Source of the DNA: Acidimicrobiia bacterium
GTDB taxonomy: Bacteria > Actinomycetota > Acidimicrobiia > Acidimicrobiales > CATQHL01
DNA: 39,677 bases
Assembly (NCBI GenBank): GCA_021296435.1
Contig: JAGWAK010000003.1
Coordinates: 1 to 39,677 of the forward strand
Direction of reading: 5' to 3'
In this document: positions 4,057 to 39,643 of the stretch, one piece after another
Position numbering within the stretch: the stretch's first letter is position 1
Layout: every line of letters starts with the position of its first letter
Translations under genes and position numbers: made by a program
Notes under the pieces: generated by a model
What the model was told of the DNA's origin: nothing
Seen by the model: only the letters and a program-made list of their open reading frames with translations
Database searches by the model: none

Positions 4057-4134
4057 CACGACACCCCCACTGGCAGCCGCGGGTTCAACCCGATGCACAA
4101 GGGTGCCCGGGCTGGTCGTCACTTGCCGCGGGTT

Positions 4135-5089: not shown

Positions 5090-6213
5090 CGGTCCCCCGC
5101 CAGGCGGTCGTAGCTGAACTGTGCCGCGGCGCGCCGGCGCGCCGCGGCGCCCATGCGGCGCCGACCCACAGGATCGTCGAGCAGGGTCGCCAGGGTGTCG
5201 GCCACGGTGGGATCGGTGACCACCAGCCCGCTGGTGCCGTGCTCGACGGCTTCAGCTGCTCCCCCGCTATCGCCGGCCACCTGCGCCACCCCGGCGGCCG
5301 CCGCCTCCAGGAAGACGATCCCGAATCCCTCCTGCTCGAGGCCGCCCCAGCGCCTGCGACACAGCATGGCGAACAGGTCGGCTGCGCCGTACAGATCGGC
5401 CAACTCCCTCTCGGCGACCCGCCCCACCAAGCGCGCCGGCGCGTCGGCGCGGCGCACGAGCCGCTCCAGTCTCCCGCTGTCCCTTCCCGCTCCGGCGATG
5501 CACAGGCGTAGGTCCGGCCGGCCGGGTGCCAGGCGGGCCACCGCCTCGATCAGCCTGTCCATACCCTTGCGGGGCACCAGCCGGCTGACACAGAGCACGA
5601 GGGTCTCGCCGTCACCCACACCGAGGCGGCGGCGCGCTTCCCGCCGATGTTCGCCGGACAGCGGTACGAAGCGCCCGACGTCGACGCCCGGCGGCACGTA
5701 GTGATCCGCCGCCATGTCGGGACACAGCCGCCGCGCCTCGCCGGCCGCGTAGCGGCTGGCGGAGATCACCACCTGGGCACTCGCGAGGGTTCGCCGGAGG
5801 GCTCCCGCGGCGAGCGGCAGGCGCGCCGGCACCGTCACCTCGGCGCCGTGCAGCACGACCCCGTAGGGCACGCCCAGGCGCGGCCCCAGGACCCCCACGG
5901 GGACGGCCGGATCGAATACGACCAACTCGGCGCCGGTGGAGTCCAGCAGGTCGCGGATCTCCGCCAGCACCAACGGCGTGGGCAGCAGGAAGGAGGCCGC
6001 ACTGCGCACGATGGGGTACGCCTCCCCGGCGTCGAAGGCGGCGGCATCGGGGTGCGGGCGGGTCAGGACACAGAACAGATCGGGGGGCAGCCGCCGCCAG
6101 AGTTCCCAGAGGTAGTTCTGGATCCCACCGACCTTCGGCGGGTAGTCGTTGGTGACCAGCAAGTGGCGGCGAGGGCGAGGCTCACCGCCGGCTGATGCGG
6201 GCGGCGAGCTCAC
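5071..6213 (-). CDS. GT4-family (GT-B) glycosyltransferase, PimB/mannosyltransferase-like
   Basis: LLVTNDYPPKVGGIQNYLWEL N-terminus and the C-terminal EGFGIVFLEAAAAGV...GG..E motif. The start overlaps the queG stop (ATGA). Confidence 0.85.
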   Translation of the reverse strand: MSSPPASAGGEPRPRRHLLVTNDYPPKVGGIQNYLWELWRRLPPDLFCVLTRPHPDAAAFDAGEAYPIVRSAASFLLPTPLVLAEIRDLLDSTGAELVVFDPAVPVGVLGPRLGVPYGVVLHGAEVTVPARLPLAAGALRRTLASAQVVISASRYAAGEARRLCPDMAADHYVPPGVDVGRFVPLSGEHRREARRRLGVGDGETLVLCVSRLVPRKGMDRLIEAVARLAPGRPDLRLCIAGAGRDSGRLERLVRRADAPARLVGRVAERELADLYGAADLFAMLCRRRWGGLEQEGFGIVFLEAAAAGVAQVAGDSGGAAEAVEHGTSGLVVTDPTVADTLATLLDDPVGRRRMGAAARRRAAAQFSYDRLAGDRCRALC

Positions 6214-7304
6214 GAGCCGTCCGCCGTGCCATCCCCGTGGCCGCCTCCCAGGCCGGCGGTGGGTGCGGGCACAGACTCCGGTTCCAGCCCCAGGCGCCTC
6301 GCCGCCCAGGCCGCGTGGCGAGCCAGCATCCGGTCGGGATGCCGCTGGTAGCGTCGCAGCGTCCCGACGACCTCGACATCGCCGCCATCGGCGGTGTTAC
6401 CGAGCACGACGAGGGCGTTGCGCCGAAGATAGCGAGGGTCGCGGGCCGGGATGTACCAGCGCCCGTGACGCTCCATGAGTTCCTCGTCGCCGGCGCTCAG
6501 AAGGTCCAGCACATCCACCGAGGCCTGCTCACCGGGGTCCGCCGCCTGTGCCATGCGCCGGTTGGGCGGGCAAACCTCCTGGCAGTCGTCACAGCCGTAC
6601 AACCGGTCCCCGAGTGCCTCCCGGAACTCCGTCGGGAAGTCGCCGGTGGCCTGCAGCAACCACGCAAGGCAGCGGCGGGCATCGACGACTCCTGGAGCCA
6701 CGATCGCGCCTGTCGGGCAGCCGTCCAGGCAGCGGCGGCAGGGACCACAACCGTCGGGCACCCGCTCGCCGGTGGGCGGCAGTGCCGCATCGGTGACCAC
6801 CGATCCCAGCACGACCCAACTTCCGGAGTTCTCCAGCAGCAGATTGCTGTTCTTGCCGTAGTGGCCCAGACCGGCTCTGCGCGCAGCCTCCCGGTCGACC
6901 AGGGCGTTGTCGTCGGCCACCACGACGGCCCGGTGCCCGTGATCGGTCAACACCCGCACCACGACCCCGAGGGCGGACCGCAGCGCGCCGTAGACGTCAT
7001 CGCTGGCGTAGCGGGCAACCCTCGCCGTCGGACGACCCGGGACGGGCTCCGGGGCCGCGGCACGGGCGTAATTCAGCGCCCCCACCACCAGGGCGGCCGC
7101 CCCCGGAAGGATCCGTGCGGGGTCGGTGGAGCGCTCCGGGTTGCGGTAGGTGAACTGCATGCCGCCGTGGTGACCCTGTGCCTTGCGGCGGTGGAGAATG
7201 CGCCGCGTGCTCTCGAAGACCTCCACCGGCGCCACACCCACGGCGGTCAGTCCGGCTCGCTGCCCCGCTTCCAGAACCTCACGTTGCAGACCCACCGACG
7301 GCAT
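6210..7304 (-). CDS. queG: tRNA epoxyqueuosine(34) reductase
   Basis: GHYGKNSNLL, two 4Fe-4S motifs (CGPCRRCLDGCPTGA and CDDCQEVCPPN) and a HEAT-like C-terminus. I chose ATG at 7304 (MPSVGLQREVLEAG...) because it aligns with QueG N-termini. The 571-aa ORF to 7925 overlaps the upstream gene and is rejected. Confidence 0.83.
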   Translation of the reverse strand: MPSVGLQREVLEAGQRAGLTAVGVAPVEVFESTRRILHRRKAQGHHGGMQFTYRNPERSTDPARILPGAAALVVGALNYARAAAPEPVPGRPTARVARYASDDVYGALRSALGVVVRVLTDHGHRAVVVADDNALVDREAARRAGLGHYGKNSNLLLENSGSWVVLGSVVTDAALPPTGERVPDGCGPCRRCLDGCPTGAIVAPGVVDARRCLAWLLQATGDFPTEFREALGDRLYGCDDCQEVCPPNRRMAQAADPGEQASVDVLDLLSAGDEELMERHGRWYIPARDPRYLRRNALVVLGNTADGGDVEVVGTLRRYQRHPDRMLARHAAWAARRLGLEPESVPAPTAGLGGGHGDGTADGS

Positions 7305-7443: not shown

Positions 7444-10400
7444 CTACCCGGAGACCTCCGTGGCGGGTGCCAGATCCAGCCGGGCCCGGCGCCGCTGCTC
7501 GTAGAGGCCGAGGGCGTGGAGGGGGAAGTACTGCCGGTACAGGCCGTAGTCCAGAATCGCCGTGCGGAAGAACACTCCGGACCCGTCCTGGCGGGGCCAT
7601 CCCCCATCGGTCTCCTGGGTGTCCAGCAGGAACCGGGCACCCTGGGAAATCGCCGTCCAATTCGAATCGTCGGCCTCGAGAAGAGCGAGCATCGCCCACG
7701 CGGTCTGGATGACCTGACTCTCGGTATGCGCCACGTATCGACCGGCCAGGCAGCCGTTGTGGTGCTCGCCCCATCCCCCGTCGGGCCGCTGGCGATCCAC
7801 CAGCCACCGGCATGCCCGGCGCAGCGCCGGATCACCGGGGCGGGCTCCGGCGGCAAGCAGACCTCTGACCCCGAAGAAGGTGCCGTAGATGAACTGAACC
7901 CCCCAGACGCCGCGCCACGACCCATCGCTTTCCTGGCTCCGGCGGAGCCAAACCTCGCCCCGTGAGACCGCGGTCGTGACCTCCGGATTCGCGACCTCCC
8001 CGAAGTGCTCCCTGCAAGCGGTCAACGCGGCGAGGCACGACGAGGTGCACTCGACATAGGACCGCTCGGTCATCGACTCACCAAACATCTCGGCCGGGTT
8101 CAGCCATTCGAGGCCGACCGCAGAGCGCCGCGCCTCATAGCTGCCGAACCCGCCGTCGCGGTTCTGACCACGCAGCATGAAGCGAACCGCATCGCCGAGC
8201 ATTGTCGTGCTCGCGGCGCCGCAGTCGGCAGCGAACATCCCGAGCACCGCCTCCGCGGTGCAGTCGGTCACCGGCCAGCCATGCCAACTCCCGGCGAGAC
8301 ACCAGCCGCCCTTGGGGTCGGTCCGGTAGGCCTCGTCGAATCCTTCGAAGCTGGTATCGATCTGTTGCCGCCCCAGGAAGTCGAACCCGCGCCGCCGTGC
8401 GCTCCCGACGCCGTCGAAGTCCGGCACGGTCGCCAGCGCCTGCAGGGAGAACCCGGTATCCCACGAGGCGGTTCTGGCTCCGCTGACGCGCGTCCCGCCC
8501 TCCTCGTCCTCCCAGATCCAGCCGTCGAGTCGCGCCAGAGCCTGCTGGCAGTCGGTGTCATTCGGGTCGCGCAGCCACAGGGCGAGAATGTTGAGGAAGC
8601 CACTCACCGGAGAGATGCTCCGATGGGTGGTCGTCTGCAATTCCCACCTGATGTGCCGGACGATCGACTCGGTACATCGGGCCCGCCGACCCTCGGTGTG
8701 GAACCGTTCGTACCACAGCGCAAGCCCGAGGCCGGTTCGGAGCCACACACTGGGTCGGGCGAAGAGGTCGCCGTCCCGCAGGCGATTGCGGCCCGCCTTG
8801 AAATCCACGTTGTCGAAACCCTGAGGAAACAACTCCTCCTGTATGGCGGCGATCGCGGGCGTGACGGGCGCGCGGAACCGGAGCGGGTAGATGGCCGCCA
8901 TCGCCATGTAGATGAGCCGAGTGTGGCAGTACCACTTCGAAGGGTGTAACGCCATCCAGCGTGGCAGGCTCCACAGTTCCGGCAGAACGGCGTTGACGCC
9001 TCGCCAGTCGTAGAGGCCGACGAGCGCCAGCCAGAACTTCCCCCAAGTCGGGATGCTCAGAACCCCTTCTGCCTGCAGGAATCGCCGGGCCGGTTCGATC
9101 GATGGGTCATCCGGCTCGACGCCGAGCAATCGCGCCGCGACATAGACCAGGGTGGTGACGAACAGGTGGGGCGATGAGTGCTCGTGCAAACCCCACGAAC
9201 CGTCTTCGAGGCGGGATCGCTCGAAGTAGCGCAGCACGAGCCGGCGCCGGTCAGGGTCCAACGGCCGTCCCAGAACGTGGTGCAGCAGCACGTACTGCGC
9301 CGTGAGCATGGGACACCACGCCATCTCGCTTTCCCAGGCACCGTCGGCACCCTGGAGACTCACCAACCGCGCGCTTGCGTTCTTCAGCGCCTTGCCGGCA
9401 TCGGGTGACGCGACCTCCTCCGGGCGGCTGGGCCGGAGCTCCCCCGCTCGCGAGGGCATGGACATCAGGAACCCGCGAGCCAAGGAATCCCGAGCTCGTT
9501 GATCCTTCTGTCCACCGGCGTTGCGCGCTCTGCGCAACTGCCGCACCCCGCGGAGAACCCACCCGACGCGCACCGACAGCGCCCGCACGATGTCGCGGGC
9601 CCGACGCCAGGCGATCCGGTCGCAGGATCTCGGAAGCTCGCTGACCATCGCCCGGGTCGCCATCGCCCCACACGCCAGACTCAAACTGGCAATGGATGTG
9701 TTCTCACAGGCGAGCAAGCCGATGGTCCGGTCGCGGACCGCTCGACTCTCCCGCCAGCGCCGGTAGACCGCGTGCCTGAGCGCCACGCTCTCGACCCGAT
9801 GATCCGCGAAGACCTCGTACAGCCCCATGGCGAGGAGTTCCGGTGCGCGGGTCGCCCGGAGTCGCCGATTGGTGAAGTCGCGAAAGTCCCGTCCTTCGGC
9901 CAGTGCGAGCGCATCACCGAAGCCGAGGGTCATTCCCACCGCCGTAAGCGGGTGGTAATGCCCGGCCGCATCCCCGATGAGCACCCGCCGTGGGCTCCCG
10001 TAGGTGGCGCGCGGCCTCAGCGCATTGGCCGCCGCGAGGAATCTCCGTGCCCGCAGGGCCTCGACGAACGCAGGCCTGAGTGTTGCCGGCATCCAGCCGG
10101 CGTACGAGTCCGACAGCAAGGCAACCAGGTCCCGCGGTGAGTACCCCAATGGGACGTCGACGATTACCCGAACCGAATCGTCTCCCAGGCGATAGATGAG
10201 AATCGGACCCGGCCCGCCGCAGACGACATGCCCATAGCCCTCCAGTGGCAACGTCACCCCTCTCAGTGCGATCCCCATCATCCGCGAGCAGTTCCTCGGA
10301 CTCGTCCACAGGCCCAATGAGCGACGCACGGTCGAGGCGCGGCCATCCGCACCGACGATCAGCGCGGCCTCAAGGGATTCATCGGCGCCGTGACGGGTGA

Positions 10401-10863
10401 ACGTGACACGATGGTCTTCGACGGCCCGCACACGCGCATGCAGCACGAAGTCGACACCCGGCTCCTCCTCGACGGCTTCACGCAGGTGCGAGACCAGTGC
10501 CTCGTGTTCGCATACCAAGCCGAGAGATCCGTCCGGGTACGGAAGCACGATCGGCTCCGACCGGTCTTCGGGAAACACCGCAAATCCCTTGCCGTCGGAG
10601 CTCCGCGGCTGCGTATCGAGCTCGATCCCGAAGTCTCGGAGTGTGCGCAGAGCGGGGGGATGGAGCCACTCGCCGGCGAGTCGTTTGGAGACATTGGGGT
10701 TCGCCTCGAGCAGAGCCACCGAGGCGCCTCGACGCGCCTGAGCGAGCGCGCAGAGGCTTCCGACCGGACCCGCGCCGACGACGACGACGTCGTAACTCCG
10801 GGCCCCGGCGCCGCTCATCGGTAGATGCCCGCCCGCGAGCGCCGGCGGCAACGGAACCGACAC
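7444..10863 (-). CDS. Fusion protein: squalene monooxygenase (epoxidase)-like FAD domain plus oxidosqualene cyclase-type triterpene cyclase domain
   Basis: Single open frame of 1139 aa. The N-terminal part has YDVVVVGAGPVGS, GADGRAS and GDAAGHYHPLTAVGMT (the squalene-epoxidase-family signature). The C-terminal part has at least 6 QW-type repeats and VTDCTAE (the OSC form of the catalytic acid). An alternative ATG start lies at 10818. Confidence 0.85.
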   Translation of the reverse strand: MSVPLPPALAGGHLPMSGAGARSYDVVVVGAGPVGSLCALAQARRGASVALLEANPNVSKRLAGEWLHPPALRTLRDFGIELDTQPRSSDGKGFAVFPEDRSEPIVLPYPDGSLGLVCEHEALVSHLREAVEEEPGVDFVLHARVRAVEDHRVTFTRHGADESLEAALIVGADGRASTVRRSLGLWTSPRNCSRMMGIALRGVTLPLEGYGHVVCGGPGPILIYRLGDDSVRVIVDVPLGYSPRDLVALLSDSYAGWMPATLRPAFVEALRARRFLAAANALRPRATYGSPRRVLIGDAAGHYHPLTAVGMTLGFGDALALAEGRDFRDFTNRRLRATRAPELLAMGLYEVFADHRVESVALRHAVYRRWRESRAVRDRTIGLLACENTSIASLSLACGAMATRAMVSELPRSCDRIAWRRARDIVRALSVRVGWVLRGVRQLRRARNAGGQKDQRARDSLARGFLMSMPSRAGELRPSRPEEVASPDAGKALKNASARLVSLQGADGAWESEMAWCPMLTAQYVLLHHVLGRPLDPDRRRLVLRYFERSRLEDGSWGLHEHSSPHLFVTTLVYVAARLLGVEPDDPSIEPARRFLQAEGVLSIPTWGKFWLALVGLYDWRGVNAVLPELWSLPRWMALHPSKWYCHTRLIYMAMAAIYPLRFRAPVTPAIAAIQEELFPQGFDNVDFKAGRNRLRDGDLFARPSVWLRTGLGLALWYERFHTEGRRARCTESIVRHIRWELQTTTHRSISPVSGFLNILALWLRDPNDTDCQQALARLDGWIWEDEEGGTRVSGARTASWDTGFSLQALATVPDFDGVGSARRRGFDFLGRQQIDTSFEGFDEAYRTDPKGGWCLAGSWHGWPVTDCTAEAVLGMFAADCGAASTTMLGDAVRFMLRGQNRDGGFGSYEARRSAVGLEWLNPAEMFGESMTERSYVECTSSCLAALTACREHFGEVANPEVTTAVSRGEVWLRRSQESDGSWRGVWGVQFIYGTFFGVRGLLAAGARPGDPALRRACRWLVDRQRPDGGWGEHHNGCLAGRYVAHTESQVIQTAWAMLALLEADDSNWTAISQGARFLLDTQETDGGWPRQDGSGVFFRTAILDYGLYRQYFPLHALGLYEQRRRARLDLAPATEVSG

Positions 10864-29836: not shown

Positions 29837-30841
29837 TCAGAGGGCGCCGTCGACCTCTTCCGGCGTCGTTACGTCGAGCAGGACTTTACCGAAATTTGCG
29901 TTGGATTGCATGTAGGTGTGTGCATTGACGACCTCGTCGAGGCCATAGCGCCGGTCGATGGTGGTCCGGAGCCGTCCCGACTCGAATAGCGGGAGGATCT
30001 CGGTGGCGAAACGCCTGCTGAGAGCGATCTTCTCCTCCAGCGGGCGTGCCCGTAGCACGGTACCCACGAGACGGGCCCGCTTCGCCATGAGGCGTCGAAG
30101 CGGGATGGTCGCCTCGCCGGCACCGAGCAGCCCCACCTGCACGATCGAGCCGCACATCGCCAACGCCGACAGGTTGCGAGCCAGGTTGTCACCGCCGACG
30201 ATGTCGACCACCACATCGGCGCCGCGCCCGCCTGTGTGGTCGCGGATCGCCTCGACGAAGTCCTCCTTGCGGTAGTCCACCGCCAGATCCGCTCCGAGTT
30301 CGCGGCATCCCGCCACCTTTGCCGCCGAGGCGGTGGCGACCACGGTGGCTCCCAACGCCTTGGCGAGTTGGATTGCGGCGGTCCCCACCCCGGAGCCGCC
30401 GCCGTGCACCAGCGCGACGCGACCCGACGTGAGCCCGCCCTGGCAGACGAGTGCGTCCCAGGCGGTGATCCAGACCTCGGGAATCGCCGCCGCGTCGGCC
30501 AGCGCCAGACCGGCGGGCGGCCGCAGGGCCATGCGCTCGTGGGTGACGAGCTGCTCCGCGTAGGCGCCGCCGTTGACGAGTCCCATGACGGGATCCCCAG
30601 CGGCAAGACTCCGCACGCGCGCACCGACCGCGGCGACCCGGCCCGCGAACTCGAGCCCCAGGATCTCGACGTCGGTCTCCGGCCCCGGGTACCGGCCCAT
30701 GCGCTGCAGCAGGTCAGCGCGATTGAGGGCCGTCGAGACGACATTCACGAGTACCTCGTCAGGTCCCGGGACCGGCGGCTCGACCTCCGCCAGCCGCAGC
30801 ACCTCGGGACCGCCGTAGCCGGCCAGAACGACAGCGCGCAC
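29837..30841 (-). CDS. NAD(P)H:quinone oxidoreductase (zinc-independent MDR, Qor/PIG3-like)
   Basis: 334 aa. MRAVVL..GGPEVL, VHGGGSGVGTAAIQLAKALGA Rossmann motif, and GKVLL near the C-terminus. The GTG start abuts the upstream stop. Confidence 0.85.
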   Translation of the reverse strand: MRAVVLAGYGGPEVLRLAEVEPPVPGPDEVLVNVVSTALNRADLLQRMGRYPGPETDVEILGLEFAGRVAAVGARVRSLAAGDPVMGLVNGGAYAEQLVTHERMALRPPAGLALADAAAIPEVWITAWDALVCQGGLTSGRVALVHGGGSGVGTAAIQLAKALGATVVATASAAKVAGCRELGADLAVDYRKEDFVEAIRDHTGGRGADVVVDIVGGDNLARNLSALAMCGSIVQVGLLGAGEATIPLRRLMAKRARLVGTVLRARPLEEKIALSRRFATEILPLFESGRLRTTIDRRYGLDEVVNAHTYMQSNANFGKVLLDVTTPEEVDGAL

Positions 30842-31708
30842 CTAGGCGATCCTACCGCCCTCGTCTCCGGCGACCGGCGGGTGAGGCCCGGGGCTTCGCC
30901 GGCCATTCGAACGGCCGCCCGGCTGACCGGGCTCCCGGAGCATGTCGCGAATCATGCGCAGCGCGATCACGATGAGCAGGCCGGCGAAGAGGACCGAGGA
31001 GACCGCCGAGGGGATCACACCCGCCAGCAGCCCGCCTCCGAACGCCGACAGCATGCCGCCGGCCCCTATCACCAGCGCGCCCCGCAGGTCGACATTGTCG
31101 TTGCGCAGGTTGCGCAGCGTCCCGACGATGGCTGTCGGGAGCACCACCAGCAGCGAGGTTCCCTTGGCGGTCACGTCGCCCAACTCGAAGAGCAGGACGA
31201 GCGCCGGAACCACGATCACGCCTCCTCCCACACCCATGAGACCCGCCACCAGGCCGACCAGCACGCCACACCCCACGAGACCGAACGCCACAGCGAGAGT
31301 CAGCGAGAGTTCGCCGGTGGACTCGGCCGTGCCGGCCAGCATGCGCCCCGCAGTGACCGCCAAGAGCACCACGAAGGCCACCTGCAGCGTGCGGATGCGC
31401 ACACGGTTGAGCATCTCCACCCCCGCCAGTACGCCGAGCCCCGAGCCAGCGAAGATCAGAGCCGCGGCGACGACGTCCACCGCCTCATTCAGCGCGTAGG
31501 CGACAACGCCGGCGGCGGCGAAGAGCGCGGAGGTGGCGAGCGAAGTGCCGTGCGCCACCCGCCGGCGAAAGCCCCCCAGCAGCATCAGACCGGGGGCGAT
31601 GAAAATCCCCCCACCCACACCGAACAACCCCGCGATGAAACCGGCGGCCACGCCGACACCGGGCAGAACCCACCGCGGGCGAGCCTGCTCGCCGGGGGCT
31701 CCTGTCAC
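30842..31708 (-). CDS. TauE/SafE-family anion (sulfite/sulfonate) exporter
   Basis: Two repeats of the LFGVGGG / LMGVGGGV motif in a protein with about 8 TM helices. GTG at 31708 overlaps the upstream stop (GTGA). The 388-aa extension is rejected. Confidence 0.8.
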   Translation of the reverse strand: MTGAPGEQARPRWVLPGVGVAAGFIAGLFGVGGGIFIAPGLMLLGGFRRRVAHGTSLATSALFAAAGVVAYALNEAVDVVAAALIFAGSGLGVLAGVEMLNRVRIRTLQVAFVVLLAVTAGRMLAGTAESTGELSLTLAVAFGLVGCGVLVGLVAGLMGVGGGVIVVPALVLLFELGDVTAKGTSLLVVLPTAIVGTLRNLRNDNVDLRGALVIGAGGMLSAFGGGLLAGVIPSAVSSVLFAGLLIVIALRMIRDMLREPGQPGGRSNGRRSPGPHPPVAGDEGGRIA

Positions 31709-32622
31709 GCGGAGGAGCTCTCGTCCCGATCGGTTGCCGGATCCGCCTCCGTCCGGCCCTCGCGACGCCGGCCGCCTGCATACTCGAAGCCGAAGCGACC
31801 CTTGATGCAGAGGTGCCCGGAGGTGACCTCGTGATCGTCCGGCGAGGTGACCCGGAAGATCTCGTCGTCCTGGGTGTGCAACTCCAGGTTGCAGCCGACG
31901 CCGCAGTAGGGACAGACCGTCGTGGTCACCGCCTGGGCCTCGGGGTCGAAACCACCCGATTCGCGGAGGTCGAATTCCCGGGTGAAGATGAGTGCTCCCG
32001 TGGGACACACCCCGATGCAGTTGCCGCAGTAGACACAGGCCGACTCGGGCAACTCGACGTCGTACTCGGTGGATATGCGGGCATCGAATCCGCGACCCGC
32101 CACGGCGATCGCAAACGTGTACTGGGCCTCGGTGCCGCAGGCGTCAACACACTTGTAGCAGAGCACACAACGGTCGTAGTCCCGGACGTAGAGCTCGTCG
32201 TGGCGCCGCACCGGCTCGCTCACCCGTGCCCGGTCCGGCCCGTGGCGTTCGGGGTCGGTTCCGTACTCCTCGAGCCAGCGCAGGATGTCCGCCTCGGCGC
32301 GGGAGAGATCCACCGAGGAGGCAAGCAACTCCAGGACCATCCGGCGCGAGGCCCGCACCCGGTCGCCGCCCGTGCGGATCTCCATGCCCTCGGTCACCCG
32401 GCGTGAGCAGGCCGGTACCAAGGTGCGCGATCCCTCCAACTCCACAACACAGACCCGGCAGGCGTTGACGGGTGTAATCGTCGGGGCCCAGCAGATCGTC
32501 GGCACCTCCACCCCGGCGTCGCGGCAGACGTCCAGGATCGTGCTGCCCTCGGCGGCGGCCCGTTCGGTGCCGTCGATGCGTACCGTGACCTTGCGCCGGG
32601 GGATCGGCACCGGGGTGCTCAT
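31705..32622 (-). CDS. NuoG/FdhA N-terminal-type iron-sulfur protein (2Fe-2S + 2x[4Fe-4S] + Mo/W-bisMGD-type 4Fe-4S domain) lacking a molybdopterin catalytic domain
   Basis: VTVRIDG...CRVCVVEL...PACS (2Fe-2S), CVLCYKCVDAC and CVYCGNCIGVCPTGAL (ferredoxin-type), and CPYCGVGCNL...GHLCIKGRFGFEY. The protein ends about 30 aa after that. Confidence 0.8.
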   Translation of the reverse strand: MSTPVPIPRRKVTVRIDGTERAAAEGSTILDVCRDAGVEVPTICWAPTITPVNACRVCVVELEGSRTLVPACSRRVTEGMEIRTGGDRVRASRRMVLELLASSVDLSRAEADILRWLEEYGTDPERHGPDRARVSEPVRRHDELYVRDYDRCVLCYKCVDACGTEAQYTFAIAVAGRGFDARISTEYDVELPESACVYCGNCIGVCPTGALIFTREFDLRESGGFDPEAQAVTTTVCPYCGVGCNLELHTQDDEIFRVTSPDDHEVTSGHLCIKGRFGFEYAGGRRREGRTEADPATDRDESSSA

Positions 32623-34385
32623 GGCCGCGCTCCGGCGCCGTCGAGAAGTCCCAGACGCCGGGCGGAGCCCACCGCCGAGGCCGCCGTGTGTCCCAGCCCG
32701 CAGATCGAGGCGTCGCTCATCACCGTGTCCAGGTCGTCAAGCAGGTCGGTGTCACCCGGTTGCGCCGAGCCGGAGCGCAGGCGCACGATCGCCTCGTTCT
32801 GGCGGACGGTACCCACCCGGCACGGCACGCACTGCCCGCAGGACTCGTCACGAAAGAAGGCGGTGATCCGCTCCACGATGTCGCCGATGTCCGCGGCGCC
32901 GTCGAAGACGGTGACCGCCCCGGAACCCAGCGTGAGGTCGGCTGCTCGAACGTCCTCAAATGTCAAGGGCACGTCGCTCGCCCCGGGAGACACGAAGACT
33001 CCCGCGGCCCCGCCCAGCAGCACGGCCCCGGGAGAGGCCGGGGCGCCGGCTAGTTCCAGCAGCTCGCCGAGCGACGTGCCGAACGGCACCTCGTAGACGC
33101 CCGGACCGCTCACGTCGCCGGCCACCGAGAACAGTTTCGTGCCGGGACTCTCGGCGGTGCCCACCGCGCGGAACCCCGCCGCGCCGCAGCTGAGGATCAC
33201 CGGCACATTGTGGAGCGTCTCGACGTTGTTGACGACGGTGGGCCGGCCGAACAGACCCACCTCGGTGGGGAACGGCGGCTTCGACCGGGGCTCGCCCCGG
33301 TAGCCCTCCAGCGAGTTGAACAGCGCCGTCTCCTCACCGCAGATGTAGGCGCCGGCCCCTCGGCGAACTTCGAGGTCGAAGCTCAGGCCGCTGCCGGCCA
33401 CGTCGGACCCCAGCAGCCCGCGGTGGCGCGCCTGGTTGATTGCGTCGACGATCCGCTCCTCGGCGGTGGGGTACTCGCCCCTGATGTAGATGTAGCCCTG
33501 CGCGGCGCCGACGGTCAACCCGGCGATCGTCATGGATTCGACCAGGGCGAAGGGATCGCCCTCCAGCAGCACCCGATCCTTGAAGGTGCCCGGCTCGGAC
33601 TCGTCCGCATTGCACACCACGTAGCGTTCCCGCTGAGCCGAGGCCGCCACGGCCCGCCACTTCACGCCGGTCGGGAAAGCAGCTCCGCCCCTGCCGCGCA
33701 GCCCCGAGTCGGCGATCTCGCGCAGCACCGCCTCCGGACCCATGGCCAGCGCGGTCCGCAGCGCCTGGTACCCGCCGTGCGCCCGGTACTCCTCCAGGCT
33801 GGTCGGATCCACGACGCCGATGCGGCCCGTCAACCAGGCGGGCCCGGCGGCGACCACCAGCGGTGGGGCCTCTGTCGCACCCTCGGCTGCCAGAGCGCCG
33901 GCGACCGATCCCGTGACCGTCAAGCGGGCCGCGTCGTCCCCCGCGCGCTGCACGAACAGGGCAGGGGCCCGGTCGCACTGGCCGAGGCACGGGCTCGGAT
34001 GCACACCGACCGGCTCCTCGCCGTCGTGACCGGTGTCCGCCGCGGGATCGCGGTACCCGGGGTGGACGCGGCAGGCAATGTCGTCGCAGACGTGGACGAC
34101 TGTTCGCGGACCCGCCTCGGTGCGCAGCAGGGCGTAGAACGTGGCGACCCCGAAAGCCTCGGCACGGGGCACCTCGAGTCGCGCGCAGAGCTCTGCCAGC
34201 GCTTCGGGGCTGATCCAGCCGATCCCGTCCTGCAGGGCGTGCAGCGACGGCAGCAACAAGTGCCGGCGATCGGGCCCTCGCCGGATCACCCGGCTGTCGA
34301 CAGGGTCGTAGCGACGCCCGACGGTCCCGTCCAGAACACGCACCTCCGCCGGTGTTGGGGCGCCGACGGAGGGCCTCGATTCCAT
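32619..34385 (-). CDS. NuoE-NuoF fusion-type NAD(H)-binding flavoprotein (FdsB/HoxF-like diaphorase subunit)
   Basis: N-terminal thioredoxin-like 2Fe-2S domain (HVCDDIAC...SPCLGQCDRAP), then GRGGAAFPTGVKW (FMN), ESEPGTFKDR, and ESCGQCVPCRVG...ICGLG (4Fe-4S). Confidence 0.85.
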   Translation of the reverse strand: MESRPSVGAPTPAEVRVLDGTVGRRYDPVDSRVIRRGPDRRHLLLPSLHALQDGIGWISPEALAELCARLEVPRAEAFGVATFYALLRTEAGPRTVVHVCDDIACRVHPGYRDPAADTGHDGEEPVGVHPSPCLGQCDRAPALFVQRAGDDAARLTVTGSVAGALAAEGATEAPPLVVAAGPAWLTGRIGVVDPTSLEEYRAHGGYQALRTALAMGPEAVLREIADSGLRGRGGAAFPTGVKWRAVAASAQRERYVVCNADESEPGTFKDRVLLEGDPFALVESMTIAGLTVGAAQGYIYIRGEYPTAEERIVDAINQARHRGLLGSDVAGSGLSFDLEVRRGAGAYICGEETALFNSLEGYRGEPRSKPPFPTEVGLFGRPTVVNNVETLHNVPVILSCGAAGFRAVGTAESPGTKLFSVAGDVSGPGVYEVPFGTSLGELLELAGAPASPGAVLLGGAAGVFVSPGASDVPLTFEDVRAADLTLGSGAVTVFDGAADIGDIVERITAFFRDESCGQCVPCRVGTVRQNEAIVRLRSGSAQPGDTDLLDDLDTVMSDASICGLGHTAASAVGSARRLGLLDGAGARP

Positions 34386-34452
34386 CGTTCCAGCCTAGAA
34401 GTGCGGCTCGGCGTCGCAGAGTCAGCCCCGCTGCGCCGCGGCGCGACTCCGC

Positions 34453-36843
34453 TCAGGCTGTCGAATGCCCCCTGAGCAGGGCGCGCAGGCGCGGCGGGCT
34501 CAGGTTGGACTGCGTGATCGACACACCCAGGGGTACCAGAGCGTCGTGCACAGCGGCAGCGAGCGCCGCCGGTGTCACGATGATCGCCCCCTCGCCTGCC
34601 CCCCGGAAGCCGCCGATCAACCCCGACGGCGTCTCGCGGTGGATGATTCGCGCCCGCACCGCGTCGCCGAATGTGGGGATCATGTAATCCAGCAGGGTCG
34701 AGGTCAGCGGTTGCCCGTTCTCGTCGTAGTGGATCTCCTCGAAGAACGTCTGCCCCACAGCCTGCGCCACCGCTCCGTGGATCTGCCCGTCCAGCAGCAC
34801 GCCGTCGATCACGGTCCCGCAGTCGTGGACGATCGTCAGGTCCTGCACCGTCACGACCCCAGTGGCCGCTTCGACCTCCACGACCGCGGCCGCCGCCGCC
34901 GTGGAATAGGTGGCGGCCACGTTCATCTTTCCCCGCTCGTCGGGGAACGGGCTGGTGTTGCCCGGGTCGTACCCCACCACGACCGACAACCCCGGATCCA
35001 TGCCGGGCGGCAGCAGGAACGTGTGCAGATACGCCACGGCAGCGATCTGGGCGAACGGGATCGCCGCCTCCCCCAGCCGGAAGAAGCCGTCGGAGGCCTC
35101 GATCTGCTCGGCGGGGGCTTCCAGCATTCCCGCGGCGATGGCCGCCATCTTGTCTCGCACCTGCTGTGCCGCCTTGATGACCGCTCCGCCACCCATGACC
35201 GCCGAACGGCTCCCCCACGTGCCGATGCCGTAGGGCAGCGCGGCAGTGTCGCCGTCGCTGACCTCGACGTCGTCAGGGCTGATACCGAGGGTTTCCGCGG
35301 CCACCTTGGCGTAGATGGTCTCGTGTCCCTGTCCCTGGGACTTGGTGCCGACGGCCACGTTCACCCTGCCGTCGGGCTGAACGGTCAGCATCGCCATCTC
35401 ATAACCACCGAAGCGGCCGGCCAGGCCGTGGATGTTGGGCGCCGTGGGCTCCACCATCTGGGCGATCCCCACACCCACGAGGCGGCCCGCCGTCCTCGCC
35501 TCGTCGCGGGCTCCGCAGGCGGCGTCGTAATCCACGGCCTCGAGAAGCTCGGTGAGCTGGTCGCCGAAACTACCGGTGTCGAGGACCGAGCCTGTCGCCG
35601 TCACGTAGGGCCGCGGCTCGTCGGGGATCATGTTCGCCCGGCGAATCGTGACAGGATCGATGCCGAGCCGCTCCCCCACCAGGTCCAGGACCCGCTCCAT
35701 CAGGAAGATGCCCTGCGGCTGGCCGTAACCGCGGTAGCCGCCCATCGGGCCCTTGTTGGTCGCCACGCAGCGCAACTCGAAGGCGTAGTCCTGGAGGTCG
35801 TAGCAGTTCGGAACCACGCTCGTGGTCACGATCGCCGGCGCACAACCCAGGATGTACAACTCCGGAGACCCGACGTCCACGACGAAGTTGGCCCGCAGCC
35901 CAAGGATCTTGCCGTCGTCGCGGTAGGCCACCTCCACCTCGTGGACCTGCTGGCGGGAGTGCAGCCCGGAGAGCAGGTTCTCGGTGCGGTCCTGCTGCCA
36001 GACGACCGGGTGGCGCACCCGCATCGCCAGCACCGCCACCAGCACCTCCTCGCGCATGAAGTGCGCCTTGTTGCCGAAGCCGCCCCCCATGTCGGGCGCC
36101 ACGACCCTGATCTTGGCCTCGCTCAGCCCGGAAATGTCCGAGATCACGGTGCGCAACGTGTGCGGGACCTGAGTCGATACGTACATTTCGAGGCGCCCCG
36201 TGGCCGGGTCGAACTCGCCGAGCGCACCGTGGCCCTCCATCGGTAGGCCGGAGATACGGTGATGGGTGAAGCGCTCCTGCAGGACCCCGTCGGCGCCGGC
36301 GAACGCCGCCTCGATGTCGCCATGGCTGCCCGGCATGAACAGAAAGACGTTGTCGCCCCAGTCCTCGTACAGCAGCGGTGCCTCAGGATCCAAGCCGGCC
36401 TCCGCGTCGCTGACCGCGGGCAGTTCTTCGTAGTCCACCTCGATGAGCTCGAGCGCGTCCTCGGCGATGTACCTGCTGTCGGCGACGACCGCGGCAACCG
36501 GCTCGCCCACGAACCGCACCTTGTCGGTGGCGAGCACCGACCATGTGATCTGCCTCAGCGTCGGGATCATGGGGAGGTGATGGCTGAACTCGCCGGTTTC
36601 GGCCGCCAGTTCGCCCCCCGTGAACACCCCGATGACCCCGGGGAGGGTCAGCGCACCGGAACCGTCGATGTGGCGGATCCGGGCGTGCGCCACGGGGCTG
36701 CGCAGGATGGCGATGTGCTTCAGGTCGGGCCGGTACACGTCGCCGAGAAACTCACCCTGACCGCATAGCAGCCGGGTGTCCTCCTTGCGCCGGAGGGCGG
36801 CGCCCGTCTCCGCCGGCGCCTGTGGCGGCGCGGTGACGCTCAC
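34453..36843 (-). CDS. Xanthine dehydrogenase/CoxL-family molybdopterin-binding large subunit (not a CO dehydrogenase)
   Basis: 796 aa. GGGFGNK, an active-site loop GGYRGYGQPQG (neither VAYRCSFR nor AYRGAGR), and the C-terminal catalytic-Glu motif FRGAGEGA. The GTG at 36843 overlaps the small-subunit stop (GTGA). Confidence 0.87.
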   Translation of the reverse strand: MSVTAPPQAPAETGAALRRKEDTRLLCGQGEFLGDVYRPDLKHIAILRSPVAHARIRHIDGSGALTLPGVIGVFTGGELAAETGEFSHHLPMIPTLRQITWSVLATDKVRFVGEPVAAVVADSRYIAEDALELIEVDYEELPAVSDAEAGLDPEAPLLYEDWGDNVFLFMPGSHGDIEAAFAGADGVLQERFTHHRISGLPMEGHGALGEFDPATGRLEMYVSTQVPHTLRTVISDISGLSEAKIRVVAPDMGGGFGNKAHFMREEVLVAVLAMRVRHPVVWQQDRTENLLSGLHSRQQVHEVEVAYRDDGKILGLRANFVVDVGSPELYILGCAPAIVTTSVVPNCYDLQDYAFELRCVATNKGPMGGYRGYGQPQGIFLMERVLDLVGERLGIDPVTIRRANMIPDEPRPYVTATGSVLDTGSFGDQLTELLEAVDYDAACGARDEARTAGRLVGVGIAQMVEPTAPNIHGLAGRFGGYEMAMLTVQPDGRVNVAVGTKSQGQGHETIYAKVAAETLGISPDDVEVSDGDTAALPYGIGTWGSRSAVMGGGAVIKAAQQVRDKMAAIAAGMLEAPAEQIEASDGFFRLGEAAIPFAQIAAVAYLHTFLLPPGMDPGLSVVVGYDPGNTSPFPDERGKMNVAATYSTAAAAAVVEVEAATGVVTVQDLTIVHDCGTVIDGVLLDGQIHGAVAQAVGQTFFEEIHYDENGQPLTSTLLDYMIPTFGDAVRARIIHRETPSGLIGGFRGAGEGAIIVTPAALAAAVHDALVPLGVSITQSNLSPPRLRALLRGHSTA

Positions 36844-37313
36844 AGCTGCTCCTCGGCAGTGCCGGCGACGGCCTCGAGGGCCTTGACAATGTTGACGTAT
36901 CCGGTACAGCGGCAGAGGTTGCCCGACATCCACTCCTCGATCCGGTCCCGACTCGGGTGGGGATCGGTCTCGAAGAGTTCCAGTGCCGTCAGCACCATTC
37001 CCGGTGTGCAGAAGCCGCACTGAAGGCCGTGGTGGGTCGACAGCGCCTGCTGGATGGGGTGCAACGACCCCGGAGAACCCACCCCCTCGATGGTGCGCAC
37101 CTCCGAGCCGCCCACCTGCACGGTGAACATGAGACAGGACCGCACACCACATCCGTCGACCAGGACCGTGCAAGCGCCGCAGGAGCCCTGCTCGCATCCC
37201 GCATGAGCCCCTGTCATGGCAAGGCGGTCGCGCAGCGTGTCCAGCAGCAACTCGCGCGGCTCGACCTCCACCTCCGCGACCTCGCCGTTGAGCGAGAATC
37301 GGACCTTCGTCAT
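36840..37313 (-). CDS. (2Fe-2S)-binding small subunit of the molybdenum hydroxylase (CoxS-like)
   Basis: GCEQGSCGACTV (plant-type cluster) and CGFCTPGM...CRCTGY (second cluster). ATG lies 9 nt after GAGGAG. Confidence 0.9.
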   Translation of the reverse strand: MTKVRFSLNGEVAEVEVEPRELLLDTLRDRLAMTGAHAGCEQGSCGACTVLVDGCGVRSCLMFTVQVGGSEVRTIEGVGSPGSLHPIQQALSTHHGLQCGFCTPGMVLTALELFETDPHPSRDRIEEWMSGNLCRCTGYVNIVKALEAVAGTAEEQL

Positions 37314-37366
37314 GCCGGCTCACTCCTCATTGCGGCTCCTCCTCGTCTACTTCGGTGTGCGTGTGC

Positions 37367-38248
37367 TCAGGCGCCACCGGCCGAGCCGGCCCGTGCCCAG
37401 GCTCTCCGCACGGCGTCGGCGGCCAGCACGGCGGCGAGTTCACGCCGGTAGTCCTTCGAACCGTGCACGTCGCCGGGAGGATCCGCCGCCGCGGCGACCC
37501 GCCTCCCCAGTTCCTCCGCCGCGCCGTCGGTCAGGCTGGACTCTCCCCGCAGGAAGTCCCCCGCGGCACTGAGATCCATCGGCGTCGGGCCGAGACCGCA
37601 ACCGGCGACCCGCACCTGCTCGCAGGCCCCGAAACCATCGCGGTGCAGGATGACGGCCACCCCTGCTGTGGCGAAGTCACCGTGGCGGCGGACGAACTCA
37701 CTGAACGCGCCGCCGTCGCCGTCGCGGTGTGCGGGGACCTCGACGGTCGTCAGCAACTCGTCGGGCTCGAGGCCGGTCGTGAAGGGACCGGCGAACAACT
37801 CGGCGGCGGGAATGGCCCGCTCGCTCCCCGTGCTGGCGACGATGACACGACCCTCCAGCGCCACCAGCAGCGCCGGCAGTTCGGCGACCGGATCGGCGTG
37901 GGCGAGGCTTCCGCCGAGTGTCCCCCGGTTGCGGATCCCGACGTGGCCGATGAGCTCCGCCACTTCCGCGAAGATCGGGGCCTTCTGGCGCACGTCGGGG
38001 TCGGTCTCCAGGAAGCGATGGCGGCACATGGCGCCGAACCGCAGCGTGCCGTTGTGGGATTCGAAACCCGACAGCGCTCCCAGGTGGTTCACGTCCACGA
38101 GCAGGCTCGGACGCGCCAGGCGCAGGTTCATCAGCGGCACCAGGCTCTGCCCGCCGGCCAGCACCCGGGAGTCCTCGGCGCTGGCGAGAGCCTCGGTGGC
38201 CTCGCCGACCGATCCGGCAGCGACGTAGTCGAACCGCGGGGGTTTCAC
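37367..38248 (-). CDS. FAD-binding medium subunit of the molybdenum hydroxylase (CoxM-like)
   Basis: FDY..AGS..EA, LAGGQSLVPLMNLRLARP, GTLGGSLAHADP, and a CO_deh_flav_C-like tail. The GTG at 38248 overlaps the Rieske gene stop (GTGA). The 415-aa extension is rejected. Confidence 0.85.
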   Translation of the reverse strand: MKPPRFDYVAAGSVGEATEALASAEDSRVLAGGQSLVPLMNLRLARPSLLVDVNHLGALSGFESHNGTLRFGAMCRHRFLETDPDVRQKAPIFAEVAELIGHVGIRNRGTLGGSLAHADPVAELPALLVALEGRVIVASTGSERAIPAAELFAGPFTTGLEPDELLTTVEVPAHRDGDGGAFSEFVRRHGDFATAGVAVILHRDGFGACEQVRVAGCGLGPTPMDLSAAGDFLRGESSLTDGAAEELGRRVAAAADPPGDVHGSKDYRRELAAVLAADAVRRAWARAGSAGGA

Positions 38249-39474
38249 GCCGGCACTGCCGCTGCCGCTCGCCGGTCCTCGGCACGGTAGCGCCCCACCA
38301 GCCAGGTGTTGAATTGGGCCAGGACCGACTCCTGCCACGAGTACCGTCCACGCGGCGCGAAACGGGACCCCATTCCCCGCTGCACCGCCGTGTTGGTGGG
38401 CAGGTCCTGGTTGTTGAACAGCTCCACGCCGTGGATGGCCGCGCCGAGCAACTCCCCGAACAGCGGCACCTCGAGTGTCGACGGCGGGAAGATGTAGGCC
38501 ATGGTCAAGGTGTGTGACGACTCGCTGACGGGTTGAACCGTGAACCAGAACGCCGAGTCGGGCTGGAAACCCATCAGCAGGCTCGGAGGCACGTAGGCGA
38601 ACAGCATCCGCCATCGTTCGGTCTCGGTCAGCGTCGGGATGATCGGGAAGATGGCCTTCTGGGTCGGATTGAAGCCACCGTCGGGAATTGTCGCCCCCAT
38701 GGCGCCGTACATGGCGGCGTCACCCTCCTCGAAGGGCGCGTACCAGGCGTTCCGCGACGGCGCGAAGTCGTGGATCCCTTTGTGGAGACGGTCGGGGTGG
38801 TAGCCCTCCATGAAGTTCTCGACCATGATCTTCCAGTTGAACGGGAGACCCGGGACGGTCTCGGGCTCCACCGTGATCATGTCATCGACGTGATAGTTCG
38901 CCAGCACCTCGTCGAGCTTCACCAGCCGGGGGCTGAGCGGTGGGGCCTCGTCATCGAAGTTGACGAACACGAAGCCCTTCCAGAGTTCCGTGCGCAGCCG
39001 GGGCAGGCTGATGTCCGAGCGAGAGAACCCGGTCGTCTCACCCATCTCCGGCGCGCCCACGAGCCTGCCGTCGAGGTCGTAGGTCCACCAGTCGTAAGGG
39101 CACCGGAAGGTCCGGCAGTTACCCGACGTCTCCGGCGGCAACTCGAACCACTCCGAGGGCGGTCGCTGGGCGGGTGCCGTCACACACATGCCGCGGTGCT
39201 GGCAGACCGAGGACATGACGTTGATCTCGCCATCGGTTCCACGTGCAACGATTAGCGGCTCCCCCGCGACCGTGATCGTGAAGAAGTCCCCCACCTCGGC
39301 GATCTGATCACTACGTCCCACGCAGATCCACTCATGGCCGAACACGGCCTCCCTCTCGAACGCGAAGAAGCCCGGATCGGCGTACACCGCAGGTGGGAGA
39401 CCCACGGCGGCACTGAAGTCCTGAGCCGAGGCGTCGAGGCTCTCCAGCGGGATGGGGCAGCGCCGGTGTGTCAT
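38245..39474 (-). CDS. Rieske-type non-heme iron oxygenase alpha subunit with an atypical Rieske motif
   Basis: CQHRG...CPYDWWTYDLDGRLVGAP (Rieske-like) and the mononuclear iron motif NFMEGYHPDRLH. ATG at 39474 lies 8 nt after AGGAGG (39483-39488), so the GTG at 39483 is unlikely. Confidence 0.83.
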   Translation of the reverse strand: MTHRRCPIPLESLDASAQDFSAAVGLPPAVYADPGFFAFEREAVFGHEWICVGRSDQIAEVGDFFTITVAGEPLIVARGTDGEINVMSSVCQHRGMCVTAPAQRPPSEWFELPPETSGNCRTFRCPYDWWTYDLDGRLVGAPEMGETTGFSRSDISLPRLRTELWKGFVFVNFDDEAPPLSPRLVKLDEVLANYHVDDMITVEPETVPGLPFNWKIMVENFMEGYHPDRLHKGIHDFAPSRNAWYAPFEEGDAAMYGAMGATIPDGGFNPTQKAIFPIIPTLTETERWRMLFAYVPPSLLMGFQPDSAFWFTVQPVSESSHTLTMAYIFPPSTLEVPLFGELLGAAIHGVELFNNQDLPTNTAVQRGMGSRFAPRGRYSWQESVLAQFNTWLVGRYRAEDRRAAAAVPA

Positions 39475-39643
39475 CACACTCACCTCCTGTTCCGTTTAGC
39501 CCCTGCAGCGCCGTGGACCGCTGGTCAGGCCACGACCGGGGCCACACCACGCAACAAGCTAAACTCGCCGGTCACGTTCGGGCGGCGACGTTAGCAGCCG
39601 TCCGAATGCGCTGGGGAAGCTCGACGACGGAGGAATTCCGCAC
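39475..39643. promoter_or_regulatory. Probable divergent control region upstream of the Rieske/Mo-hydroxylase array
   Basis: 169-nt gap between the minus-strand start and a possible plus-strand start. It contains the direct repeat GGCCAC-N6-GGCCAC (39528-39545) and the inverted repeat CGTGG...CCACG (39512-39534). No function has been demonstrated. Confidence 0.3.

Follow-up and report, generated by a model that had tools for sequence, protein, structure and literature searches.

Does an NAD(H)-linked iron-sulfur (Fe-S) module that is encoded immediately behind a molybdenum hydroxylase and a Rieske oxygenase serve these two enzymes, or does it belong to another one? The question is raised by a contig of an Acidimicrobiales (Acidimicrobiia) metagenome-assembled genome (MAG), assembly GCA_021296435.1, contig JAGWAK010000003.1, of which we analyzed a stretch of 39,677 nt in its entirety (hereafter, the window; G+C ~70%). 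Here, an array of eight co-directional genes on the minus strand encodes, in this order, a Rieske oxygenase, the three subunits of a CoxMSL-type hydroxylase, a NuoE-NuoF fusion (NuoEF), a headless NuoG-like Fe-S protein (NuoG-N), a TauE-family permease and a quinone oxidoreductase (Qor). An earlier note on this DNA had described the NuoEF/NuoG-N module as attached to the array, where it was a candidate redox partner of the Rieske oxygenase or of the hydroxylase. The comparison with homologous loci leads to a different answer, namely, that three units make up the array, which is a composite rather than one eight-subunit machine. We give a probability of roughly one half to the reading that the Rieske-CoxMSL cassette was inserted into the operon of a split formate dehydrogenase (FDH), such that NuoEF/NuoG-N is still the FDH diaphorase and its relation to the cassette is one of co-expression.

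The identity of the module is clear. The gene nuoEF (32619-34385; Pfam domains 2Fe-2S_thioredx, Complex1_51K, SLBB and NADH_4Fe-4S) encodes a protein with the motifs GRGGAAFPTG, GAGAYICGEE and CGQCVPC, one [2Fe-2S] cluster, one [4Fe-4S] cluster and an FMN/NAD(H) site. Residues 32-574 of this protein, near its full length, match, in the PDB, the tungsten FDH of Methylorubrum (Methylobacterium) extorquens in its beta subunit (7e5z_B), with further matches to 6vw7_B and 6tg9_B. NuoG-N (31705-32622; 305 aa) combines Fer2_4, two Fer4 and Molybdop_Fe4S4 domains in Pfam (including PF13510 and PF04879), with one [2Fe-2S] cluster, two to three [4Fe-4S] clusters and a Molybdop_Fe4S4 domain ending in CIKGRFG, and matches the N-termini of FDH alpha subunits (9bov, 8oh5, 6tg9, 7e5z). 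The same NuoE-NuoF fusion, the same FMN and NADH motifs, and the same series of [2Fe-2S], [4Fe-4S] and Molybdop_Fe4S4 at the alpha N-terminus are found in Fdh1AB of M. extorquens (7e5z/7vw6) and FdsABG of Rhodobacter capsulatus and Cupriavidus necator (6tg9, 6vw7). The window differs from these enzymes in that alpha is split, the Fe-S N-terminus having its own gene and the part that binds bis-molybdopterin guanine dinucleotide (bis-MGD) being a separate gene, and in that this catalytic gene is absent, with the Rieske and CoxMSL cassette in its place; accordingly, the diaphorase is not accompanied in the window by an FDH catalytic domain with its Sec/Cys-His site. A bifurcating module of the HydABC/Bfu type was considered and rejected, given that the NuoF-like subunit lacks the extra C-terminal 2x[4Fe-4S] ferredoxin domains and ends 13 residues past its last domain. 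The gene order in outgroup loci, the active-site motif of the catalytic gene in those loci and the PDB matches thus establish NuoEF and NuoG-N as the diaphorase/Fe-S half of a split NAD-dependent FDH, and the assignment of the pair to the FDH type in the earlier note is borne out by both structures and gene neighborhoods.

The outgroup loci reveal where such a module normally resides. NuoEF homologues fall into two groups: those with 74-94% identity to the window lie in the same array, after which identity drops to 63% or less and the operon is, in all relatives examined, a different one, [bis-MGD]-[NuoEF]-[NuoG-N], with the catalytic gene directly upstream. In a scan of GTDB with one genome per species and the NuoG-N alignment as the query, 80 loci were taken, 3 of them in the clade of the window. 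A bis-MGD gene lies directly upstream in 58 of the 62 informative GTDB outgroup loci by automatic assignment (60 of 62 when the inspected loci L059 and L089 are counted) and in 50 of 53 informative JGI metagenome loci, that is, in about 110 of 115 altogether, which speaks against the module being attached to the hydroxylase; neither CoxL nor a Rieske gene is found beside the module in any of these ~115 loci. FdhD is encoded within 27 of the 77 GTDB outgroup loci, and no FdhD was found in the window or in the clade loci. The outgroup catalytic genes carry CNRT[U/C]HAPSV, the FDH active-site motif known from FdhF and FdsA, its variable position being an in-frame TGA in the Acidimicrobiia genes and Cys in that of Streptomyces. 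The Acidimicrobiia catalytic subunit therefore probably contains selenocysteine. As a side observation, gene callers cut these TGA-containing Acidimicrobiia genes into genes of 79 and 534 aa. The split FDH was noticed at L004 (8093-9976) and L007 (8093-9979), along with about 110 other loci among L017-L174.

In L004, L007 and the Streptomyces spinoverrucosus locus (L006), the catalytic gene ends 5-24 nt upstream of nuoEF. Operons of this kind, [bis-MGD]-[NuoEF]-[NuoG-N](-FdhD), share with the window the two-gene order with a start/stop overlap, identical cluster ligands and 50-67% identity across the module; they differ in having the catalytic gene where the window has coxL, 67 nt upstream of nuoEF, and the trailing TauE-Qor pair is limited to the clade. 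The split form, consisting of a separate bis-MGD gene without the Fe4S4 domain, NuoE-F and an Fe-S protein of ~300 aa, occurs in Actinomycetota, Chloroflexota, Acidobacteriota, Eremiobacterota and others, with at least 588 matches in GTDB species genomes of several phyla, and is a widespread, apparently uncharacterized variety of NAD-dependent FDH. Outgroup operons lie among genes of glycine-betaine and one-carbon (C1) metabolism (OpuAC, DMGDH, GCV_T, FTHFS). The two halves are not always contiguous: L117, in other respects a normal split FDH operon, has a gene for an unrelated 1191-aa secreted protein (3491-7066; Laminin_G_3, GSDH, PKD, CBM96) between the bis-MGD gene and nuoEF, L135 has the bis-MGD gene without the module, and L076 and L091 have the module without the bis-MGD gene, FdhD being kept in L076. 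Separate encoding of the FDH halves is therefore tolerated.

The module also retains the features of an FDH component. In FDHs, the Molybdop_Fe4S4 domain adjoins the bis-MGD cofactor, and it is this domain, with its CIKGRFG terminus, that is the best-conserved part of NuoG-N: its identity to the L004 outgroup protein is ~81%, compared to 58% for NuoG-N as a whole, and it is nearly invariant in the clade, L015 included. Moreover, all Cys ligands of NuoG-N are invariant with respect to the split-FDH outgroups. This pattern weakens the notion that the module diverged to accommodate a new partner.

Juxtaposition of CoxMSL with the module is confined to one narrow clade of Acidimicrobiales, in which NuoEF is 74-94% identical to that of the window and which is represented by eight loci: the window, L001, L002/L003, L014, L015, L016, L094 and L175. 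The proposed co-occurrence therefore holds within this clade, where coxL adjoins nuoEF in seven of the eight loci, and fails outside it, so that the juxtaposition is not a general architecture. Six further independent contigs carry the same array as the window, and it is therefore not a chance arrangement. The clade loci share a single chromosomal site, and their readable downstream flanks, except for that of L175, run TauE-Qor-HTH17-PhoH-YbeY-CorC-Era; TauE follows the module in seven of the eight and is absent in L175. The upstream flanks vary. The Rieske gene is preceded by a divergent ATP-binding cassette (ABC) transporter in L001, L014 and L016 (in the latter, the binding-protein gene alone is visible), by HNH, amidase and creatinase-like genes in L002, and by a creatinase-like gene, a second Rieske gene, a co-directional ABC transporter and a third Rieske gene in L094. 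In L175 (1-4569) and L015 (1084-6726), a block of regulatory genes diverges from the Rieske-CoxMSL operon and encodes a histidine kinase with a TorS-type sensor domain, a Peripla_BP_6 protein, an RsbW-like kinase and a STAS anti-anti-sigma factor, along with, as seen in L175, a receiver (response regulator)-SpoIIE phosphatase of the PP2C type. By its domain content, this block looks like a ligand-sensing, partner-switching control of the cassette.

The locus that departs from the rest of the clade is the most informative. L015 (MAG Acidimicrobiia SB0661_bin_55, VXNF01000014.1) occupies the same chromosomal site, with TauE-Qor-HTH17-PhoH-YbeY-CorC-Era downstream and the L175-type block upstream, followed by a Rieske gene of the R2 type (94% identical to R2 of L175) and, directly after it, nuoEF. 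In the alignment, the 143-nt spacer between the Rieske gene and nuoEF (8092-8234) keeps the last ~75 nt of coxL, and therefore coxM, coxS and most of coxL were recently deleted. The same locus encodes a bis-MGD protein, read as an intact C-terminal ORF (open reading frame) of 345 aa. This ORF lies beyond the histidine kinase gene, to which it is convergent, at a distance of 7 kb upstream of nuoEF. Thus, the statement that no FDH catalytic partner is near does not hold for the clade. The L015 ORF shares 61-67% identity with catalytic subunits of the outgroup, and the module 50-67% with outgroup modules; this similar divergence is as expected for an ancestral partner.

The spacer in front of nuoEF provides a further indication that the two halves are distinct. 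In the window, it comprises 67 nt (34386-34452) and includes the hexamer TAGGCT (34392-34397, minus strand), 6 nt before the nuoEF ATG, which is kept in all eight clade loci within the consensus ...C(C/T)TC-TAGGCT-GG(A)ACG-ATG, even where the upstream gene is different, as in L015. A semi-conserved GGGCTGACTCTGCGACGC box lies ~20 nt further upstream, again including L015. TAGGCT fits the actinobacterial TANNNT -10 consensus and may act as an internal -10 element, from which a leaderless nuoEF mRNA would arise; together, the hexamer and the GGGCTGACTCTGCGACGC box may constitute an internal promoter and operator. With a conserved promoter-like element directly before nuoEF, the two halves need not share one transcript. 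An intrinsic terminator in the gap was also sought, but a consensus scan found none, and the GC hairpin present (z -2.3) is not conserved in relatives.

From these comparisons, the following scenario can be proposed. The split FDH would function with its bis-MGD catalytic polypeptide docked on the Molybdop_Fe4S4 domain, passing electrons from formate to Mo/W-bisMGD, a [4Fe-4S] cluster, the Fe-S chain, FMN and, finally, NAD+. In the ancestor of the clade, the Rieske and CoxM/S/L genes, a catabolic cassette likely acting on an N-heterocyclic or N-alkylated substrate, would have entered the operon between the catalytic gene and nuoEF, joined in some lineages by a sensor/partner-switching regulator block or an ABC transporter. 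The genes for the electron wire would now lie behind coxL while keeping their own promoter-like element, and the displaced catalytic subunit is, most likely, still the partner that the module serves. Within the cassette, the molybdenum enzyme would use water for hydroxylation and the Rieske enzyme O2, the latter enzyme probably being fed by a reductase encoded elsewhere, as for many orphan paralogues. The benefit of the juxtaposition might be co-expression, for example, regeneration of NADH or removal of C1 units beside oxidative catabolism. Both this metabolic rationale and the continued work of the module with a bis-MGD subunit in the window-type genomes are what we infer from the loci compared.

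Several observations weigh against this scenario. L015 is a single MAG, and its bis-MGD gene was read for the C-terminal 345 aa only. The best of the JGI matches listed for this protein is 67% identical, which speaks neither for nor against an orphan catalytic gene in window-type genomes, and an exact-sequence search with the window NuoEF gave no match. No bis-MGD gene is seen in any window-type locus over the reach available from nuoEF, which is 15 kb upstream in L094 (occupied by additional Rieske genes along with an ABC transporter and a creatinase-like gene), 10 kb upstream in L001/L002 and 30 kb downstream in the window; the L175 locus was read to ~1 kb short of the bis-MGD position expected from the L015 layout. 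Furthermore, coxL and nuoEF have stayed adjacent in seven of the eight clade loci despite at least four changes of the upstream flank, a swap of the Rieske gene and the downstream difference in L175, which suggests selection for the junction. The spacer between them is short throughout the clade (64-81 nt), and a consensus scan of the 67 nt in the window found no canonical terminator.

The same observations are the starting point for the principal alternative, in which the inserted cassette captured the FDH diaphorase for its own redox chemistry, the module either making CoxMSL an NAD+-linked hydroxylase (Mo to the two [2Fe-2S] clusters, FAD, the Fe-S chain, FMN and NAD+), or acting as the NADH-dependent reductase of the Rieske protein, or both. 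We regard capture as a tentative possibility, clearly less probable than continued service to an FDH. The persistence of Rieske-CoxMSL-NuoEF-NuoGN in seven of the eight clade loci (NuoEF 74-94% identity) across four upstream contexts, on a shared strand, is compatible with it, as is the absence of a bis-MGD gene within 10-15 kb upstream in the window-type loci. Likewise, there is no gene for a CoxG-type quinone adaptor beside the cluster, the sole SRPBCC gene of the window being ~25 kb distant, neither the window nor the flanks of its relatives contain a Rieske reductase or ferredoxin gene, and in L015, the module remains directly behind the Rieske gene after the loss of coxMSL. However, no independent second occurrence of the arrangement was found, the ~115 outgroup modules having no CoxL or Rieske gene beside them, and the cassette enzymes for their part do without it: CoxL homologues with 66-70% identity have no module alongside (CoxMSL at 70% stands alone), and neither do orphan Rieske homologues with 72% and 60% identity. 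The most conserved part of NuoG-N is the domain that docks bis-MGD, and it is the same in L015, where bis-MGD is present and CoxMSL is absent; the promoter-like element divides the two halves; and CoxM already carries FAD. A NuoG-N search of 1.84 billion representatives yielded mostly fragments and full-length FDH or NuoG proteins, with no informative fusion of NuoG-N to CoxS, CoxM or a Rieske protein among the top 150 matches. No precedent for a NuoEF/FDH-type module working with enzymes of the xanthine dehydrogenase (XDH) family or with Rieske enzymes was found in the open-access literature, a weak form of evidence. Of similar, rather low probability is a broader variant in which NuoEF/NuoG-N would be a shared hub that links CoxMSL, and possibly a bis-MGD enzyme, to NAD+ and/or feeds the Rieske protein.

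How much the cassette needs the module can be judged in part from the Rieske protein itself (38245-39474, with an alternative start at 39483), which consists of a Rieske domain (PF00355, E 4.8e-14) followed by Ring_hydroxyl_A (PF00848, E 1.3e-29) and, thus, is the alpha subunit of a Rieske non-haem-iron oxygenase. It is of an alpha-only type, here denoted R1, in which ~15 aa are inserted between one Rieske ligand pair and the next. In the PDB, it matches CntA best (E 3.5e-30), with biphenyl and benzene dioxygenases also among the leading matches; the 30 PDB matches include no OxoO or 2-oxoquinoline monooxygenase chain, and the top NCBIfam model, GbcA, scores 112.6 bits, far under its cut-off of 670. 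The protein is therefore not an equivalog of GbcA, CntA, OxoO or any other characterized enzyme. Its best-scoring characterized relatives are the C-N-cleaving monooxygenases CntA (6y8j), GbcA, Stc2 (3vca) and NdmA/B (4qup), which resemble it in being alpha-only, without beta, and in the iron motif NWK..EN...YH....H. The 2-His iron motif (E/D-x3-D/E-x-Y-H-x4-H) is present as ENFMEGYH229PDRLH234, aligned with DNYMECYH....H of CntA. The window protein differs from the CntA/GbcA group in its insertion, in the lack of a CntB/GbcB reductase gene and in an Asp at the position of the second His ligand.

This last substitution, overlooked in the earlier note, concerns the Rieske cluster directly. The ligands in the window read C94-Q-H96 ... 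C128-P-Y-D131, departing from the CxH...CxxH motif, with Asp131 aligned to a His of CntA. The orthologues in L001, L002, L014, L016 and L094, 86-94% identical to the window protein, have CPYHWW in place of CPYDWW, and Asp at this position occurs in none of 120 listed homologues, only in the window. The codon, GAC (39091-39093, minus strand), differs from CAC by a single change, so that Asp131 may reflect a sequencing or assembly error; otherwise, it is a mutation that would disable or alter the cluster.

The earlier note had singled out NuoEF/NuoG as the only candidate for passing electrons from NADH to the Rieske protein. It is correct that the window encodes no conventional reductase or ferredoxin for this protein, but the argument is weak, given that close Rieske homologues are orphans: L008, L009 and L010 have them without a reductase nearby. 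We also considered the ~15-aa insertion as a docking site for the module and dismissed this idea, as the orphan homologues in L008 and L009 have the insertion and R2 of L175 and L015, upstream of the module, does not. R2 is 48% identical to R1, and a third paralogue, Rc of L010, is 42% identical to it. The proposal that the gene before coxM is one conserved orthologue is likewise rejected, the position being occupied by R1 in window-type loci, R2 in L175 and L015, and Rc in L010.

That three different Rieske alpha genes (R1, R2, Rc) lie directly upstream of coxM in different lineages, and that the pairing recurs outside the clade, in L010-L012, makes the combination of a Rieske protein with an M-S-L hydroxylase a robust, genuine and recurrent catabolic cassette, as previously surmised. 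The known counterpart is Pseudomonas putida 86, where a Rieske monooxygenase (OxoO) is encoded beside qorMSL (Qor, 1t3q), as in the window, and QorL is the best solved relative of the window large subunit; P. putida 86 has, however, the reductase OxoR, of which the window has no equivalent, and the window Rieske protein is not OxoO-like. On the soil metagenome contigs L010-L012 (1-22436), we observed an island with six paralogous alpha-only Rieske genes, 42-66% identical to that of the window, together with CoxMSL, hydantoinase A/B, cupin, SnoaL, two glyoxalase-fold genes, a Bmp-type binding protein with an ABC transporter, an AMP-ligase and RraA; over its 22 kb, this island encodes neither a reductase nor a ferredoxin, and the NuoEF module is likewise absent.

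The hydroxylase of the window is complete, with a CoxM-like FAD subunit (37367-38248; FAD_binding_5, CO_deh_flav_C), a CoxS-like subunit with two [2Fe-2S] clusters (36840-37313; Fer2, Fer2_2) and a CoxL/QorL-like molybdopterin subunit (34453-36843; Ald_Xan_dh_C hammerhead, MoCoBD_1/2), which place it in the xanthine dehydrogenase/CoxLMS family. Residues 13-786 of the 796 in the large subunit align with QorL, CoxL, CutL, KdhL and HcrA in the PDB, the top matches being QorL (1t3q_B, E 6e-146) and CoxL of M. smegmatis (8uem_A, E 5e-144). Because the latter scores nearly as well as QorL, the substrate of the cassette cannot be read from these matches. The loop GGYRGYGQPQG aligns with GAYRGVGFTAG of Qor and FRGYGAPQ of D. 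gigas MOP and has no Cys at the position of the Cu-binding AYRCSFR of CO dehydrogenase, and the score against the NCBIfam model CO_dehy_Mo_lg is 519 with a cut-off of 991; the conclusion that this is not a true CO dehydrogenase stands. The catalytic-Glu motif (G-x-G-E) is present as GGFRGAGEGAI, matched by eye to GGIKGMGESAM of Qor. For all three subunits, the top NCBIfam models are those of archaeal glyceraldehyde dehydrogenase, below cut-off. Neighboring genes in relatives, such as those for creatinase-like M24 proteins, amidase, hydantoinase A/B and Bmp-type ABC transporters, hint at small N-containing molecules, which is only suggestive.

These relationships invite a more elaborate and rather unlikely version of the hub, one for complete oxidation of methyl or aldehyde groups. 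Here, the Rieske enzyme would dealkylate an N- or O-alkyl compound and release an aldehyde such as formaldehyde, the XDH-family enzyme would oxidize the aldehyde to the acid, and the displaced bis-MGD enzyme would oxidize formate to CO2, with both molybdenum enzymes unloading their electrons onto the NuoEF/NuoG-N wire and the electrons returning to the Rieske oxygenase via NADH. The C-N cleavage by the closest characterized Rieske relatives, the glyceraldehyde (aldehyde) dehydrogenase models, the closeness of the loop YRGYGQPQ to that of the D. gigas aldehyde oxidoreductase, the neighboring genes just listed and the location of outgroup split FDHs among OpuAC, DMGDH, GCV_T and FTHFS are all consistent with such a pathway. 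Yet, every family match is far under the equivalog cut-off, the best structural relatives of the large subunit are QorL and CoxL, nothing points directly to aldehyde substrates or to a shared docking site, and the objections to a physical link between the module and the cassette apply here too. Finally, that NuoEF/NuoG-N is a functionless remnant of an FDH operon, adjacent by accident, is highly improbable: although no window-type locus that we examined has the catalytic gene, all eight clade loci have both ORFs intact, with identity down to 72-75%, none of the Fe-S, FMN and NADH motifs varies, the Fe4S4 domain has hardly changed, and the start/stop overlaps are kept.

The remaining features of the array are compatible with the earlier description, in which eight head-to-tail genes were identified, and the ORF listing, Pfam and NCBIfam confirm both their layout and their identities. 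The TauE/SafE (TSUP) family anion permease gene (30842-31708) follows nuoG-N, and the array ends with a PIG3-family NAD(P)H:quinone oxidoreductase of the MDR superfamily (29837-30841; ADH_N/ADH_zinc_N), which scores 370 bits against TIGR02824 (cut-off 297). Junction sequences show GTGA stop/start overlaps at the Rieske/FAD, FeS/Mo and NuoG/TauE boundaries, the coxM start being a GTG inside the overlap with the Rieske stop codon. Of the four GTGA overlaps originally counted, the one at NuoEF/NuoG is ATGA, a minor correction. The direct abutment of TauE and Qor, where TAG adjoins GTG without a gap, and the gaps of 53 nt (37314-37366) and 67 nt are exact. For the Rieske gene, the ATG at 39474 originally chosen is the likelier start because AGGAGG lies 8 nt upstream of it.

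The rest of the window consists of housekeeping genes (HTH_17, PhoH, YbeY, CorC, Era, helicase, UppS, RecO, an aminoacyl-tRNA synthetase, DnaG, a sigma factor, PFK and others), without a gene for a ferredoxin reductase, small ferredoxin or bis-MGD protein elsewhere in it. Apart from the array, an ORF of 1139 aa (7444-10863, minus strand) joins a squalene epoxidase (FAD_binding_3/SE, aa 24-389; E 3e-25 to human SQLE, 6c6n) to a cyclase (aa 494-1124) that matches human lanosterol synthase (1w6k, E 1.6e-127) far better than squalene-hopene cyclase (E 4e-53). These matches suggest a fused two-step enzyme of sterol synthesis in an Acidimicrobiales bacterium.

The components of the array are of known kinds, and its arrangement and the split FDH are variants of which no description was found in the open-access literature, again a weak negative. 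If the module were wired to the cassette, this would be the first XDH-family hydroxylase or Rieske oxygenase to exchange electrons with NAD(H) via a complex-I-type NuoEFG module, of relevance to enzymologists and to designers of NADH-coupled hydroxylation catalysts; a true hub would mean an undescribed NAD-linked XDH-family architecture along with a new class of Rieske reductase. If, instead, the module serves the FDH only, the locus would demonstrate that the operon of a multi-subunit enzyme can be split by a catabolic cassette without loss of the enzyme, and would be a warning against inferring electron-transfer partners from adjacency alone. Either way, the analysis draws attention to a widespread and apparently uncharacterized split form of NAD-dependent FDH.

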